This document shows positions 5,523-19,925 of a stretch of 29,780 bases of DNA, one piece after another. The stretch covers positions 1-29,780 of IMG/VR virus record IMGVR_UViG_3300043410_000189; one strand, given 5' to 3'. Origin of the DNA: a virus. Lineage: Duplodnaviria; Caudoviricetes. Both the position numbers and the translations under genes were made by a program. The notes under the pieces were generated by a model, which was not told the origin of the DNA, did not search any database, and saw nothing but the letters and a program-made list of their open reading frames with translations. Positions within the stretch are counted from its first letter, which is position 1. Each line of letters opens with the position of its first letter.

Positions 5523-5759
5523 TTATCCTTGTTTAAATTGTTTTACTTCTTGCTTCAAACGCTCCAAGTACAGGCAGAAGTCCATCGCTTCATCCTGAGC
5601 GTGATTAAGCCATTCTAACGCACTTAAATCAGTTCGTGTTAACATTGTACCGTACTTCTCAATTCCTCGTTGTGAGCGGTAATAAAACTTGCTCATTACT
5701 TTTAGTACAATTGGGTCTTCGACTTTTACTGGTTTATCTTGGTCGTGTGTTATGTTCAT
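5523..5759 (-). CDS. Conserved phage protein, possibly all-alpha NTP-pyrophosphatase (MazG-like)
   Basis: RSQRGIEKYG..LTRTDL..WLNHAQDEAMDFCLYLE helical acidic motif. Confidence 0.55.
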   Translation of the reverse strand: MNITHDQDKPVKVEDPIVLKVMSKFYYRSQRGIEKYGTMLTRTDLSALEWLNHAQDEAMDFCLYLERLKQEVKQFKQG

Positions 5760-6436
5760 AAGAATTTCATTAAGGCGTTATAATACTCACGGCAATACTC
5801 TATCTTCTCTTTAATTTGTTCGATGACTGCTTCGTCTTTTTGTACGTAGAATACTTTTACTCTTCGGTTTTTAGGCACTTGGCTAAATTCGTGTTTACGC
5901 AGAATCTCCTCTCGCAAGTCTAAGTCCTCTTCAATCTTGTGTAACTTCCAATGGGCTCTGCGGATTTCGTCTTCAACCATATCAATCGGAGTATCTACAA
6001 GGCAGTAGCAAAGCATTGACTGTTGTTTTCCTGTTAGCCACATATAACCTTGAAGTTGATAGAAATAATCTTTGTTAGGTATCTCTGTATCAAAAAACGG
6101 AAAGGTAGTAGCATCCCAACTTGATTTCACGTCTAAAAGTATTTCTTCCGTGTTTACGTCAGGCGTTCCTTTAATCCAATCGTTCTCAAAGTATTCTTCG
6201 TTCTTGTAGATAAATTTTACGTCTAAGACATCATTGACAAGTGAGATAGATAAATCTTCAACTGCGTTACCTTTGTCCGTGTAACGGCTTGAAAACTCCT
6301 TTCTAATGCCGTATTTGTCCTCTAATACAAGTTCATGTATGTAACTTTTAGCAGTTTGGCTAAGTAATTCGCCTTTTGCTCGTGGTGTAGCCATGATTTT
6401 ACCTATGGCAGAACATCGAATCTTGAGAGTCTTCAT
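5756..6436 (-). CDS. YqaJ/lambda-exonuclease-like PD-(D/E)XK nuclease
   Basis: RCSAIG, KGNAVE, GTPD, LLDVKSSW, YFYQLQGYM; adjacent to ERF. Confidence 0.85.
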   Translation of the reverse strand: MKTLKIRCSAIGKIMATPRAKGELLSQTAKSYIHELVLEDKYGIRKEFSSRYTDKGNAVEDLSISLVNDVLDVKFIYKNEEYFENDWIKGTPDVNTEEILLDVKSSWDATTFPFFDTEIPNKDYFYQLQGYMWLTGKQQSMLCYCLVDTPIDMVEDEIRRAHWKLHKIEEDLDLREEILRKHEFSQVPKNRRVKVFYVQKDEAVIEQIKEKIEYCREYYNALMKFL

Positions 6437-6948
6437 AGTGCGTTAAGTATATCGGTTTGCCCATCAGTTAATTTGAACGCAGACTCTAACTTTTCACGAG
6501 TATAAGAACCATCTTGAATTGCTTTTAGAGCAGATTGAAAGCGTTTGTTGTCCATTGTAGGAAGTGTTTTAACTTGCTCTCCGCTTGCATCCGTGTCTTT
6601 GTCTGTTACTAATCCAAGTGCAGAACTCAAAGCATAGCGTCTGTAATAAGTTACACCTGATCCGAATCCTTGATAATCATTCATGCCCTTAAGCTGAACG
6701 TAATGAATCATACACTCAGATTCCATGTATTCTCCACTCTCGTGAAAGATTACAGTCTTTAAGCAGTTTTGTCCTTCGTTGTTGGTTAGTTGCTGAGTGA
6801 ATCCAAGTCCGTGTTTTTTTAGTATTGGGTTGATTACCTCAAAAATCTTGGGTAAATCTGCGTAAGAATACCCATAGCCTTGAGTGGCTTTGTGAATTAC
6901 AGGAACTTCTTGTTGGAATGATGCCAACGATTTAAATAGATTTTTCAT
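6433..6948 (-). CDS. erf: ERF-family single-strand annealing recombinase
   Basis: YSYADL, GSGVTYYRRYALSSALGL..DKDTD signature. Confidence 0.9.
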   Translation of the reverse strand: MKNLFKSLASFQQEVPVIHKATQGYGYSYADLPKIFEVINPILKKHGLGFTQQLTNNEGQNCLKTVIFHESGEYMESECMIHYVQLKGMNDYQGFGSGVTYYRRYALSSALGLVTDKDTDASGEQVKTLPTMDNKRFQSALKAIQDGSYTREKLESAFKLTDGQTDILNAL

Positions 6949-6963
6949 AGCGTTTATTTTATA

Positions 6964-6971
6964 CGAAGATA
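6964..6971 (-). promoter_or_regulatory. Variant -7 promoter box (TATCTTCG) upstream of erf
   Basis: One mismatch to TAnnTTTG; flanking context resembles the 12729 promoter. Confidence 0.4.
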
Positions 6972-10702: not shown

Positions 10703-10804
10703 AAAAAACCCCTGCATATCATCACGGCTGGACTTGTGAATCAATACAAGGGTCAATAAAACCTTTAGAGTTTATGGTGTCCAGCCAACTCGTCTACAAA
10801 TATA
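10703..10804 (-). ncRNA. Structured leader/attenuator upstream of the replication operon (promoter TATATTTG at 10797-10804)
   Basis: GGCTGGAC (10786-10779) complementary to GTCCAGCC (10733-10726) in the loop of the ACCCTTGTAT/ATGCAGGGGT+T-tract terminator. Confidence 0.6.
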
Positions 10805-11468: not shown

Positions 11469-11760
11469 CGTATCGGTTATTTTCTTCTTCTCTGATTTCA
11501 TCGTAGAACCAATGGAACTCATTGTCAACATTTCTGCACAATGATTCATAGGCTTCGTCTGCTTGTTTAATAGTGACTTCTTCATCTTCATTCCATTTTA
11601 TTAGTGTAACATCGTATTTGTATTGGTCTTCCATAAAATCCCAGTAGAACTGAACCTCGAAAGTACCGATTAGTAAATCTTCATCTGAGTAAACCTCAAC
11701 ATCTAAAGTTCGTGTGTGAGCGCATTTCTCAGTACAATAGAAGTGATATTTATTTTGCAT
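11431..11760 (-). CDS. Highly acidic hypothetical protein
   Basis: Very D/E-rich with many aromatic residues; early region. Confidence 0.7.
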   Translation of the reverse strand: MQNKYHFYCTEKCAHTRTLDVEVYSDEDLLIGTFEVQFYWDFMEDQYKYDVTLIKWNEDEEVTIKQADEAYESLCRNVDNEFHWFYDEIREEENNRYDDEDFGDFVGFI

Positions 11761-11977
11761 CGTTTCGAGTTATTAGAAGTCCGTATTTTTGTAGCACTGG
11801 CGATTGCTCGTGGTGTTTAACTTGCGAGTTATATGTCTTTACGACTTTAGTTGGATATGTGTTTGTCGAACTGAGCCACAACAAAAACACGAATCCACAT
11901 AACGCAAGACCAATTCCTTTAAATAAGTCCTTGTCGCAGTCTTCCAACATTCTCCATTCTTTAATAATTGTTTTCAT
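11750..11977 (-). CDS. Small membrane protein
   Basis: TM segment GIGLALCGFVFLLWL; GCTATGAAAA start context. Confidence 0.7.
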   Translation of the reverse strand: MKTIIKEWRMLEDCDKDLFKGIGLALCGFVFLLWLSSTNTYPTKVVKTYNSQVKHHEQSPVLQKYGLLITRNDAK

Positions 11978-12132
11978 AGCATTTGAATTATATAGTTAAA
12001 AATTAAATCGTTTTTTTCTACTTCTGATTTAGCGTAAGCATCTGCTTCTAAGTGCGAGCTAAACGCTTTTACTTCACGATAAAGAGTCGTATTATCTTCA
12101 CGCAAGTAATAGATTTTAAATAGCTTCTCCAT
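11974..12132 (-). CDS. 52-aa hypothetical protein (not in the ORF track), paralog of 12304-12465
   Basis: MEKLFKIYYLREDNTTLYREVKAFSSHLEADAYAKSEVEKNDLIFNYIIQML; ATGA overlap with the downstream gene. Confidence 0.65.
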   Translation of the reverse strand: MEKLFKIYYLREDNTTLYREVKAFSSHLEADAYAKSEVEKNDLIFNYIIQML

Positions 12133-12292
12133 CTTCAATTTGTTCAAGTAATGTATTTAACTCATACCATATCGCAGAAGCTCTTAAAGTTGATATATCA
12201 TCAGAACCAAAATTCTCAATGCAATCTTGTAAATAAGTATAAGCCTCCTGCTCTTTTGACTTGATTAAGTCGATAATTTCTTGTTTTGTCAT
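12116..12292 (-). CDS. 58-aa hypothetical protein (not in the ORF track)
   Basis: MTKQEIIDLIKSKEQEAYTYLQDCIENFG...EDGEAI; GCTATG start. Confidence 0.7.
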   Translation of the reverse strand: MTKQEIIDLIKSKEQEAYTYLQDCIENFGSDDISTLRASAIWYELNTLLEQIEDGEAI

Positions 12293-12303
12293 AGCTCAAT
12301 TAA

Positions 12304-12465
12304 TTAAAGTTCAAAGATTTGAAATGTAAATAAATCATTGATATTTGATGTTGCGATAATTAGTTGTGCGTATGCTTGCGCACTCTCTAAGTTTACAAAC
12401 TCATCAGTCTTGCTAAATAGTTCGTTGTTATCGATGTCTTGAAATTCAATTTTAAAAGTTTTCAT
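12304..12465 (-). CDS. Early hypothetical protein (start at 12465, MKTFKIEF)
   Basis: ACGCTATGAAAA start context. Confidence 0.7.
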   Translation of the reverse strand: MKTFKIEFQDIDNNELFSKTDEFVNLESAQAYAQLIIATSNINDLFTFQIFEL

Positions 12466-12469
12466 AGCG

Positions 12470-12703
12470 TTATTTATTAATAAATTCAATTACTTGATTA
12501 ATACTTCTTGCGGTTTTATTCCAATATGATAAACCCAAATCATTAGCATAATTAAATACTGAAAATTTAACTCGTGAATCGTAGCCTGATTTTTTACCAT
12601 TGATAGAAGTTAACTTAATAACCAGAGTTCCATCAACATAAATCAATGTTTCTTTGTCCTTTGTTAAGTTACAAACTTGTTTTGTTGTTGTGATAGTTTT
12701 CAT
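12470..12703 (-). CDS. First early gene, hypothetical protein
   Basis: Follows a canonical promoter; ACGCTATGAAAA start context. Confidence 0.75.
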   Translation of the reverse strand: MKTITTTKQVCNLTKDKETLIYVDGTLVIKLTSINGKKSGYDSRVKFSVFNYANDLGLSYWNKTARSINQVIEFINK

Positions 12704-12728
12704 AGCGTTTTTGTTAATTGGTTATATG

Positions 12729-12759
12729 CAAATATAGATACTATTTACAACCTACCAAA
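12729..12759 (-). promoter_or_regulatory. Canonical Bacteroidota sigma-A early promoter TTTG-N19-TATATTTG
   Basis: caaatata at 12729-12736 and caaa at 12756-12759. Confidence 0.8.
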
Positions 12760-12838
12760 CTTTTTCACAACTTTTTTCACATTATTTTTAAAATCGTAGT
12801 ATTTACAAGGCTTTCAGAAGCAAACTTTTTTTACGTTT

Positions 12839-12971
12839 TAAGGTTTTACCATTATTTTATGACATGATATATATGATTTTACCCTTATTTTATACGTGAA
12901 AAACACTTAATGCAAAGGAATTATACTTAATAAATTGTGAAAATTCATGCAGTTAGTCGGAATTTAACCGA
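12839..12971. repeat. ~21-bp-period array of bipartite motifs (TGA/GGA-N6-7-CTTA/TGCA/CCGA)
   Basis: Right half-sites start at 12884, 12906, 12926, 12948 and 12968. Confidence 0.5.
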
Positions 12972-12991
12972 TTGTGTATAGTGTATTAAAC

Positions 12992-13018
12992 AAAAAAGCC
13001 TCCGATTAAAGAGGCTCT
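12992..13018 (-). terminator. Intrinsic terminator ending the late region/sRNA
   Basis: AGCCTC-N8-GAGGCT followed by TTTTT. Confidence 0.85.
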
Positions 13019-13051
13019 TACGCTATGAAAATGGAATATGTCACAAATATA
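12992..13051 (-). ncRNA. Candidate ~50-nt antisense sRNA (promoter TATATTTG, seed UUUUCAUAGCGU, terminator)
   Basis: TTTG-N22-TATATTTG promoter; seed at 13031-13020; AGCCTC/GAGGCT hairpin plus T6. Confidence 0.6.
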
Positions 13052-14083
13052 CTAAAATAGGTGACTAATTCGGCAAACTTGTCCGTGATTTTTATGATGT
13101 ATAAATCCTTCAATAGCTTTTGGTGCGTGTTGGTAGCCTGAACGGTGATGCCAAGAGTCTGCCCCTGAAGGTGATCTCAATGATTCTACAGTGACACCTT
13201 GATAGTCTTTGCTTTCCTTATGGTGAATGTGGTGTATATAAACATACCTACGCTTGGTTAAGCTCCAATCTAATGGGAACTCAGTAGCTAATAAAAGAGG
13301 TAAGTCTCCGTGTTTCGCTCCGTCTCCGTGAGTAGTACCGATTAAGTTCTCTCCGTATCTAAACGACTTGCGATGTGAAATAGAGCAGTCGAAAGTAATA
13401 TTTGAAGCCTCACGAAAATGTGTTTTGATAACATCTGCAAGAAAAAATCCATGTGTGTAATCATGGTTAGAAGGATTGAACACAAAATGCACGTCAGCCA
13501 AAGCAATAAGTTTTTCAAGTATTTCAACATATAATTGTTTTGCGGTTAGAAAATTAGCGTACCACATTCCATCGGTGTCTTGTGGAGTTCCTGAGGTTGT
13601 AGTTCGTCTTGGTGAGTCAATGTGTAGAATATCGTTACCACCAATAAATAGAATCTTATCTATGTTAAATCCTGATGACTTATCTAAAATTCCTTGTACA
13701 CCCTCTAAAACACGTTGTACCGCAATCTGAGAGTTGTAATCTTCTCCAGTTTCAAATGAATCGCATAGCTTACCGATATGAACGTCAGCAGGATCAATTA
13801 CTAATAGATGCCCTTCTTTACTTGGGGTTCGTGTAATCGTAGGATAAGACGGAGAATGCTCTGCAATGGACTTAATCAACTCATCTTTAAACTCGTTAAA
13901 CTTGTCTTGTTGTCCATTAAAGTTTGGATTCTTAAAGAATAACGAAGCTGACTTGTTTTTTATCCACCCGTGTTTTACATCTTTGTCATCTAACCCAAGT
14001 GAGTTAGCTTCTTGTTTTATCGCTCTATATTGTTCGATGATTTCTACCTCATCTGATTTTAAGCGATAGCGTGTTTGTTTCAT
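13052..14083 (-). CDS. Calcineurin-like metallophosphoesterase
   Basis: DVHIG, GGNDILH, SNHD, HGD and HHIHH motifs. Confidence 0.85.
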   Translation of the reverse strand: MKQTRYRLKSDEVEIIEQYRAIKQEANSLGLDDKDVKHGWIKNKSASLFFKNPNFNGQQDKFNEFKDELIKSIAEHSPSYPTITRTPSKEGHLLVIDPADVHIGKLCDSFETGEDYNSQIAVQRVLEGVQGILDKSSGFNIDKILFIGGNDILHIDSPRRTTTSGTPQDTDGMWYANFLTAKQLYVEILEKLIALADVHFVFNPSNHDYTHGFFLADVIKTHFREASNITFDCSISHRKSFRYGENLIGTTHGDGAKHGDLPLLLATEFPLDWSLTKRRYVYIHHIHHKESKDYQGVTVESLRSPSGADSWHHRSGYQHAPKAIEGFIHHKNHGQVCRISHLF

Positions 14084-14517
14084 AGTGTGATTTTAAAATT
14101 CTTGAATAGGAAGTGCGTAAACATTCCTATAACAAAACCCAAAACTAATAATAAAATGTTAGGTTTTACATTCTTATGTTTTTCAGTTTTATATTTAGAT
14201 ACCTCTACTTTTTGAATCATTCTTATGGTATCTCGTTTTATTTTGTATTCGATACGTGTTTCAAATCGTGTTTTAGGTACGAAAGAGCGCTTGTAACGAA
14301 TTATTGTATCTTTTTGGACTAATACCTTCTCCCAAGCAATAGAGTCCCTTAAAACGTACGGAATTGAGTCAATAGATGTTATTTGAATTGTATCGGCAAC
14401 CTCATCGCATTTATAGCCTTTCTTGATTGCTTTGCGTAGGTGGTAGTTAGCTGAACACGAACCTAAAATAATTAAGGTCGAAATGTAGAGCGATAGTCGT
14501 TTAATCTGTTTATCCAT
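14080..14517 (-). CDS. Unimolecular spanin-like lipoprotein
   Basis: Lipobox IILGSC near the N-terminus, C-terminal TM ILLLVLGFVIGMFTHFLF; follows the endolysin. Confidence 0.65.
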   Translation of the reverse strand: MDKQIKRLSLYISTLIILGSCSANYHLRKAIKKGYKCDEVADTIQITSIDSIPYVLRDSIAWEKVLVQKDTIIRYKRSFVPKTRFETRIEYKIKRDTIRMIQKVEVSKYKTEKHKNVKPNILLLVLGFVIGMFTHFLFKNFKITL

Positions 14518-16707: not shown

Positions 16708-17195
16708 CCGCTATAATTGTTAGTTGTGTCAGGGTACATTTGTTCGTTTACATTTGTGTTGTATTCAGGGAATAAATCACGATGAAAACTCATGTACATA
16801 GTAAAACGCTCAGTATAATGTTGTGCGATTTGACGTTCTTTTTCGACTAAATAGTCTACTTCGTTTTTTTCTACTTTCTCGCTATTCTCAGACGAATGCT
16901 TATAGACTCCTTTATTAGCGATTGTGTATGCTGCAAATGGTAAAAACTCAACCATTGCCCAATGAATTAACATAGGCTTTACAAGGTTTTCTACAAGTGA
17001 TTCGTAGTTACCAGTGAGCGTCCCTGCGACTATATCTGATTGGATTTTCTCAAGTAGTTTAGTGCCTAAGAAATTTTGAATATGTGTGTCTTGAGCGATT
17101 TTAATGAATTGGATGAACTTATCAGTGTCTACGTTACCATTCGTTGCGGTAAAACGAACTAAATCATCTCGAGTTATAAGTAGTGCAGTTGCCAT
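16695..17195 (-). CDS. Head-tail adaptor/connector-like protein
   Basis: Immediately after the portal; helical IKIAQD.HIQNFLGTKL motif. Confidence 0.6.
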   Translation of the reverse strand: MATALLITRDDLVRFTATNGNVDTDKFIQFIKIAQDTHIQNFLGTKLLEKIQSDIVAGTLTGNYESLVENLVKPMLIHWAMVEFLPFAAYTIANKGVYKHSSENSEKVEKNEVDYLVEKERQIAQHYTERFTMYMSFHRDLFPEYNTNVNEQMYPDTTNNYSGWFI

Positions 17196-19335: not shown

Positions 19336-19362
19336 AAAAAAGGGAGACCGAAGCCTCCCCTT
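19336..19362 (-). terminator. Intrinsic terminator after the major tail gene
   Basis: GGGAGGC-TTCG-GTCTCCC plus T6 (UUCG tetraloop). Confidence 0.9.
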
Positions 19363-19382
19363 TCACGCTATGAAGAAAAGTG

Positions 19383-19925
19383 TTATGCAGTTACGATAGT
19401 AGCACCACCAAACGCAGTAGCTAATCCTGTTTCAGTCGTTACATCAATTACATTGGCAAATATTTTTTCTGTGCCAACAAAAGTTAAATTATAACCCGAT
19501 AGGTCACCCATTGCAGTACCACTTACCGCACCTGCAGTAGTGATTTCCATTCCGTGTTCTAAACCTGCAAAGAAGAATTGGTTGTTGCGGTTCTTAACGA
19601 TAATGTGTGGTCGCCCATATGCTAACAATTTCACGTTTTTGTGAGTTGTAGCATCTTGTTTTTTAAGAGTAACGGTAAGCGTTTGCTCAGCGAAAGTAGT
19701 TCCGTTCTCACGAGATGAGTTGTACACTTGATCAAAAGAGTTAGTTCCTTTGAGTTCGTATTTATATAAGCTGGATACTCCTGAAACTGAATCAATTACG
19801 TCACCATTAGTACCATCATAAGTGATACCTGTATAATCCCCGAAGTTAACAAAATAGATAGCATCAATACCTGCTACACTATCTTTACATGGCTCAAGAC
19901 GCCCGTTTGCGATTTCACAAGACAT
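19383..19925 (-). CDS. Major tail (tube) protein
   Basis: MSCEIANGR..PCKDSVAGI, SRENGTTF.EQTL, G.AMGDLSGYNLTF; follows the capsid gene. Confidence 0.7.
   Translation of the reverse strand: MSCEIANGRLEPCKDSVAGIDAIYFVNFGDYTGITYDGTNGDVIDSVSGVSSLYKYELKGTNSFDQVYNSSRENGTTFAEQTLTVTLKKQDATTHKNVKLLAYGRPHIIVKNRNNQFFFAGLEHGMEITTAGAVSGTAMGDLSGYNLTFVGTEKIFANVIDVTTETGLATAFGGATIVTA

Follow-up and report, generated by a model that had tools for sequence, protein, structure and literature searches.

The phage antisense RNAs sar of P22, OOP and aQ of lambda and STnc6030 of BTP1 are encoded opposite their targets, and type I toxin-antitoxin systems have a small toxin gene that overlaps the antisense RNA or lies beside it. 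As described in PMC12197685, sar, OOP, aQ and STnc6030 variously block translation, govern timing or keep out superinfecting phages, and act on lysis-lysogeny regulators or the tailspike. The C4 antisense RNA of P1/P7 is phage-made and pairs with an early message of its own phage, which it represses; it shares an operon with icd-ant and, alongside the C1 repressor, helps to maintain lysogeny (as outlined in PMC8198154). SviR of the Vibrio PLE satellite is portrayed as a trans-acting small RNA of a mobile element that lowers phage-gene translation, within a satellite-versus-helper conflict, and as conserved across PLEs (bioRxiv 10.1101/2022.04.08.487710). The FopS small RNAs of Bacteroides thetaiotaomicron, finally, are host-encoded, comprise 14 paralogues with one conserved seed and glycan-transporter targets, and block initiation by pairing beside the AUG (described in PMC11697453).

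Here we analyse a 29,780-nt stretch of phage DNA (IMG/VR record IMGVR_UViG_3300043410_000189, positions 1 to 29,780), referred to as the window, which encodes a predicted small RNA of the same build as FopS. This RNA, termed the unit RNA after the short promoter-to-terminator unit that encodes it, would work in the manner of FopS and of three antisense RNAs of phages (C4, sar and STnc6030); from each of them it differs in Rfam match, location or target. Whereas FopS is host-encoded and keeps its seed, the unit RNA is phage-encoded, switches its seed between relatives and is directed at the phage's own recombinase gene, erf. Like C4, it is a phage RNA that would repress an early gene of its own phage by pairing, but it lies 6 kb from erf, shares no icd-ant operon and has no antirepressor target, and no repressor or antirepressor family was found. 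Rfam returned no relevant match at E-values up to 5 (11500-14200) and none at the gathering score (window and four loci), which leaves the unit RNA outside both the FopS/GibS and the C4 families. In contrast to sar, OOP, aQ and STnc6030, it is encoded in trans, has a match of 8-22 bp and aims at a recombinase; its three exact-complement targets lie 0.3, 0.5 and 6 kb away and the frame on the opposite strand is not conserved, which sets it apart from cis-antisense RNAs such as sar and OOP. That frame, of 1-120 codons, and the covarying target, Erf, likewise do not fit a type I toxin-antitoxin system. With SviR it would share the trans-acting mode and the lowered translation of a phage gene, but it is self-targeting and has a changing seed. 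Our search of the open-access literature, at listing level, returned no description of this RNA.

Results

Genome organisation of the phage

The window is a near-complete circular phage genome with a 127-nt terminal overlap, and its recognisable genes all lie on the minus strand, as do the features given below unless stated otherwise. The early block runs from 12703 downward and contains genes for a DnaD-like loader, a helicase, NinG, an HNH protein, Erf, an exonuclease, SSB and a sigma-like protein. The late block leads from the terminases through the structural genes and the endolysin to a metallophosphoesterase-like gene (PHROG 704; 13052..14083, stop codon 13054-13052), with which it ends at 13052. 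Early transcription has a promoter of the form TTTG-N19-TATATTTG (12729..12759); the first early gene (12703-12470) encodes 77 aa with no family, and the second (ATG at 12465) encodes 53 aa. The product of erf (6433..6948) is a single-strand annealing recombinase (PF04404), and the start of the exonuclease gene (5756..6436) overlaps the erf stop, through which exonuclease translation is probably coupled to that of erf.

No integrase or repressor family was found among the 60 window ORFs searched against PHROGs, and one 130-aa protein had a helix-turn-helix match below the cut-off. A late-promoter motif showed no enrichment (34 vs 30). Portal and capsid have their sole cultured matches in the Nonlabens phages P12024S/L (37% and 31%); the host probably belongs to the Flavobacteriaceae, and the genome-collection matches, mostly short contigs with mixed labels, gave no host indication.

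A predicted small RNA behind the phosphoesterase gene

Directly past the phosphoesterase stop lies a Bacteroidota sigma-A -7 box, TATATTTG (13044..13051). The consensus of this box is given as TAHHTTTG, with transcription starting 4-5 nt downstream (PMC6847099), and by setting the start at this distance we obtain a predicted small RNA of ~48 nt (12992..13039), which consists of a single-stranded 5' part and an intrinsic terminator (12992..13016; stem 13016-13011/13002-12997, U-run to 12992) that is also the end of the late gene block. The seed is a 12-mer (13020..13031), the inverted complement of early starts. Nine of its 12 positions are predicted to be unpaired at a value of at least 0.99, and the remaining three to pair past the U-run; the terminator folds with a z of -4.3, equalled by none of 200 shuffles. 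By these sequence signals, the RNA has its own promoter and intrinsic terminator and no coding frame, and among 85 units of relatives only one has an ATG inside the single-stranded part. The arrangement of -7 box, seed and AGCCTC/GAGGCT terminator had been reported in a first-pass annotation of this DNA, and every position checks. That annotation described the promoter as TTTG-N22-box, of which we keep the -7 box. The -33-like TTTG (13074..13077) is weak: it sits 22 nt from the -7 box, 3 nt farther than its counterpart in the early promoter (N22 vs N19), and carries little weight because of this overlong spacing and its location inside the coding sequence.

A frame that starts on the opposite strand from the inverted AUG has 11 codons in the window and 1-120 codons in relatives, and is thus not a conserved gene. 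Members of the window's seed class also carry a 5' extension of 4 to 20 nt (window 13032-13039; loci L335-L406) with two recurring motifs; the window's own version is absent from the 72 matches. No phage partner was found for this extension, which is missing in some members, and the two motifs gave only scattered matches, and no conserved host match, in 61 genomes of one genus. The extension is independent of the replication-leader RNA type described below.

Conservation of the unit

Among 81 sequences, namely the window and 80 loci with the same phosphoesterase, 62 have a box, a short unit and a terminator directly after the phosphoesterase stop, and 60 of these 62 contain the anti-start anchor. 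The other 19 comprise five with the unit farther down, six with less than 500 nt left, and eight with 1-10 kb that hold neither unit nor erf. Three of the five have the unit past an inserted gene, and there the -7 box is retained before the seed; the unit was also found after a different phosphoesterase gene, with variant -7 boxes. Terminators and seeds differ between groups of relatives, and it is therefore the layout, not the sequence, that is conserved.

A second sample of 67 loci was composed of 61 out of 160 viral rows, picked for upstream length and with earlier contigs left out, and six out of 18 genome rows. With a promoter pattern relaxed after variants had been missed, one unit was found in 46 of the 67 and none in 21. 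All 32 viral loci with at least 7.5 kb upstream of erf have it, and no unit was found in the 6.8 kb upstream in L105. An integrated copy with the unit was not seen among the six of 18 genome matches examined. We conclude that the unit is a real, conserved feature. In L149 and L153, the terminator after the unit is duplicated with a short spacer, and L158 has a different promoter-hairpin-terminator unit at the place after the unit.

Complements of the seed at early start codons

The first-pass annotation had noted that the seed is complementary to a 12-mer over the starts of the genes at 12703 and 12465 and of erf at 6948. This is borne out exactly: ACGCTATGAAAA occurs four times in the window, at 6942, 12459 and 12697 on the coding strand, each time spanning a start codon, with the fourth copy lying inverted within the unit. 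Counted on both strands, shuffled sequences contain a mean of 0.03 copies, and none of 100 shuffles reached four; when two mismatches are allowed, the nine sites found do not stand out (shuffle mean 4.6, with nine attained by 5 of 100 shuffles). We regard the erf leader and AUG (6942..6953) as the main target site, given its exact complementarity and its covariation. The start of the first early gene (12697..12708), also an exact complement but with weak class-level covariation, would be a secondary site, and the exactly complementary start of the second early gene (12459..12470) a possible one.

Also present, as had been listed, are a 10-nt match near 11977 at the start of a 75-aa gene (11971..11980), in whose family match length does not covary with the seed, and GCTATG at 12292 and 8966. 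The late structural genes were said not to use the early start context, and indeed none of those listed for the window starts with GCT-ATG. Just upstream of erf is a -7-like box, TATCTTCG (6964..6971), and a -7 box precedes erf in 42 of 60 loci. A G-rich hairpin-like element takes its place in 7 of the 60 and was seen in L092, L101, L105, L107, L109, L110, L125, L156 and L158.

Covariation of the seed with the erf start region

An unanchored longest-match search in the relatives was too noisy, and we therefore used a family-wise test, in which the duplex energy of each RNA with its own start region was compared with that for the start regions of other phages in 35 gene families (one shadow frame left out). 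The own-versus-cross gap was largest for erf (-15.2 vs -10.7 kcal/mol, n=29 RNAs), with a longest match of 8.5 vs 6.7 nt; the next gaps were 2.4 (111-aa gene) and 2.0 kcal/mol (helicase). When all starts of a locus are ranked, the erf start comes first, second or third for 33 of 42 RNAs, where 3.7 would be expected, and the effect remains within the two large seed classes. Loci fetched later added 23 previously unseen RNAs, with energies of -15.2 (own) and -9.7 kcal/mol (cross). From relative to relative, the seed thus changes in step with the erf start region. This covariation, for which the first-pass annotation had suggested looking in related phages, supports its idea of an independent antisense RNA, with promoter and terminator of its own, that is directed against early start codons.

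The pooled erf set consists of 91 pairs with 70 distinct RNAs and nine seed classes. Antisense pairing reached -14.9 vs -5.2 in the sense-orientation control, and 90 of the 91 pairs beat shuffled RNAs. For the nine classes, which were drawn after the data were seen, seven of nine row minima lie on the diagonal, and this diagonal was not reached in 200,000 permutations. Kinship inflates such p-values, families without an expected link reaching p 0.001-0.003, for which reason we base the case on how large the effect is, on rank and on how often the class switches, and not on p.

Position -3 matches in 95% of own and 50% of cross pairs (letter types G 35, A 24), and position -2 is pairable in 62 of 62 and identical in 48. 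Positions +4 to +7 covary little, so that the full 12-mer is, by this comparison, specific to the window genome; the conserved pairing core spans about -5 to +3 around the target AUG and has 8-9 nt, not 12. On the upstream side of the AUG, and nowhere else, there is a G-U asymmetry (own 38:14, cross 1.7:1), which is lost once +4 to +7 are included (43:57).

Single loci illustrate the matched changes. The seed/erf match extends to 13 nt in L121, the letters at -3 and +7 are changed on both the seed and the erf side in L123/L127, and pairing falls into two blocks of 10 and 12 nt in L332. A four-locus clade with a new erf leader, at first without a CAU-bearing unit, was found to have its unit after the phosphoesterase, complementary to both sides of the AUG with a two-base loop. 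The erf position holds three divergent Erf subfamilies and the match persists across all three; two seed classes each occur with two subfamilies (quick tree; about five class-label changes). Mismatches exist as well: at +4 in six loci, and in two loci that retain an unmatched base where a neighbour compensated. Some seed classes cross-react (-14.3 kcal/mol), and one class, L069, has a unit that does not pair with its erf start (-6.9 kcal/mol). With a distant initiation region that shows compensatory change and a seed predicted to be accessible, the RNA has the marks of a trans-encoded base-pairing small RNA.

The three Erf subfamilies replace one another at the same position in otherwise similar genomes. 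The L069 phage has a primase-type replication module, and its unit (13091 region) shares 11 nt with the erf leader (16930-16954) in the same orientation, not as the complement.

Other early genes

A further claim of the first-pass annotation was that the phage has standardised the start context of a set of early genes so that one RNA can silence them together. This is supported only in part, for erf and, weakly, for the first early gene (-12.9 vs -11.4 kcal/mol; 1 of 120 orderings at class level, with three classes of only 1-3 members), but most other early families do not track the seed. Start picks were noisy in one test of early families, in which family 2 often took a downstream ATG. By mechanical picks, CT precedes the ATG in early starts five times as often as in late ones (156 of 813 vs 18 of 519), and further ACGCTATG starts number 2.0 per locus in the window's class vs 0.96 in the largest other class. 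ACGCT/AAGCT-ATG is the usual start of first early genes also in phages whose RNA has another seed, and the context is therefore not a private barcode. Put most simply, the RNA would be directed against two early messages that have their own promoters, at their 5' ends, with erf as the foremost target.

A second seed copy and the cultured phage P12024S

A second copy of the seed, absent from the first-pass annotation, matches at 11 of 12 positions (19365..19376); it has no separate -7 box and is placed in a late gene's 3' tail, between the stop of that gene and a terminator (19336..19360). This 180-aa gene (19383..19925) follows the major capsid gene and likely encodes the tail tube, to judge from its position and its 41% identity to gp03 of P12024S; its direct tail-tube matches are at the level of leads only (0.83-0.84). 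The window's list of strong minus-strand terminators has four entries, and two of them thus carry the seed. Of 33 distinct 3' regions of the tail gene, 19 contain CATAG, as against none of 22 from the capsid gene; the tail seed is absent from 10 of the 33 tails, and a -7 box is near the second seed in one of 35 loci. The tail seed tracks erf modestly (-10.2 vs -8.6) and shows no tracking of the first early gene (p 0.76). Its location in a late message tail would tend to favour a timing over an immunity role.

Cultured P12024S has a stand-alone unit with its own -7 box after the holin gene, and its gp03 gene has a short tail. For both unit and tail, the longest complement among 60 start regions is in the promoter-led leader of gp24 (12 and 13 nt, the next being 9 and 8); by energy this leader ranks fifth for the unit and second for the tail, and in this AU-rich genome equally long matches to the unit also occur elsewhere. 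We treat the complementarity of both elements to the gp24 leader as a lead; the best match there lies outside erf. In P12024L, the leader is retained but precedes a different gene (read by eye). The erf operon of P12024S is headed by an unannotated 35-codon frame with its own -7 box (L334:11179).

A structured RNA upstream of the replication genes

Ahead of these genes, the window encodes a second promoter-started and terminator-ended RNA of ~95 nt (10703-10804), whose 5' hairpin loop pairs with the large loop of the terminator. Across 16 sequences, with the structure drawn from the window sequence, 98% of cells are paired and 16 of 22 pairs have double changes. Relatives have a second type of this RNA, and the types do not follow seed class. 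Rfam gave no match for it, and it is possibly an attenuator.

Discussion

The unit probably encodes a trans-acting antisense RNA of ~48 nt that would serve as a protein-free brake on the early recombination programme. Host sigma-A would make this RNA from DNA entry on, and by pairing with the erf message across its leader and AUG, and less strongly with the first early message, it would likely block ribosome loading on these promoter-led messages and thus turn down early-gene translation. By accumulating, the RNA could cap the output of Erf and, via the overlapping start, probably that of the exonuclease too. Late transcription would supply more seed, both by read-through to the unit terminator and in the 3' tail of the likely tail-tube message, and the early recombination programme would wind down as the late programme starts. 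Bacteroidota lack Shine-Dalgarno pairing. Initiation in Flavobacterium is described as depending on positions -3, -6, -12 and -13 and on low structure (PMC6847099). The region that the RNA would mask is the one that tunes initiation in F. johnsoniae according to this source, and we count this in favour of a translation block.

The same RNA and the same pairing could have been selected for kin exclusion, in which RNA built up inside a cell that is occupied, or a carrier, would shut off two genes of a relative that enters, erf and the first early one, with the seed classes acting as exclusion groups. We consider this unlikely, even though phages with closely similar proteins have switched seed between at least eight classes and the class matrix shows a strong diagonal. 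Also in its favour, phage recombinases are described as serving repair, circularisation and replication (PMC2896510), and an antisense RNA excludes superinfection in BTP1 (as described in PMC12197685). However, neither an integrase or repressor family among the 60 ORFs nor an integrated copy with the unit among the six genome matches examined (of 18) was found, some classes cross-react (-14.3), and a seed in a late message tail suits timing better. Quite improbable, in our estimation, is the absence of a separate transcript, with the seed acting solely from within the late message, as its 3' tail or as a fragment processed from it, which is how the second copy has to act. The unit does double as the terminator of the late block, and the second copy has a nearby -7 box in just one of 35 loci, but the unit's -7 box is kept directly before the seed, even past an inserted gene (three loci) and, as variants, after a different upstream gene, and the P12024S unit has its own box after the holin gene.

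Repeats of the motif at several promoter-proximal starts, the 11 nt that the L069 unit shares with its erf leader in the same orientation, and the loose pairing of AU-rich seeds with many leaders could be read as signs of a double-stranded DNA site, such as an operator or nick site, or of a mere terminator that resembles A-rich leaders by chance or shared descent. Such an origin is very improbable, as complementarity is conserved across phages while the sequence varies over nine classes, the motif is found inverted only before terminators, where it keeps register with the AUG, pairing in the sense-orientation control drops to -5.2 (vs -14.9), and position -2 is identical in 48 of 62 cases but pairable in all 62. 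We attach hardly any credence to an RNA aimed mainly at host messages, or left over from a small opposite-strand gene, for which the erf match would be a side effect. This would agree with the 5-6 occurrences of the 11-mer in each of three Bacteroidota genomes, with a 5' extension that has no phage partner and with the 11-codon frame starting at the inverted AUG in the window; yet whenever the class switches, the seed stays matched to the erf start of its own phage, the opposite-strand frame varies from 1 to 120 codons in relatives, and the two 5' motifs have no conserved host match in 61 genomes.

Beyond the antisense brake on early recombination, we tentatively raise the possibility of an early-to-late switch, possibly with kin exclusion, that is run by RNA alone. 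The small RNA and the 3' tail of a structural message would share one seed that shuts promoter-led early messages, the classes into which seed and target drift jointly would behave like immunity groups without a repressor, and the pseudoknotted terminator RNA may be a further arm.

A 48-nt silencer of start codons would be a useful tool in Flavobacteria, and the cultured pair P12024S/L, which carries both elements, makes the idea directly testable. Our data describe a predicted compact antisense system with a natural compensatory series over 70 distinct RNAs, which appears to be aimed at a recombinase, not at a lysis-lysogeny regulator. They also suggest that the 3' tail of a structural message may act in trans on early genes. 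The finding thus bears on how small Bacteroidota phages order their gene expression without an evident repressor.
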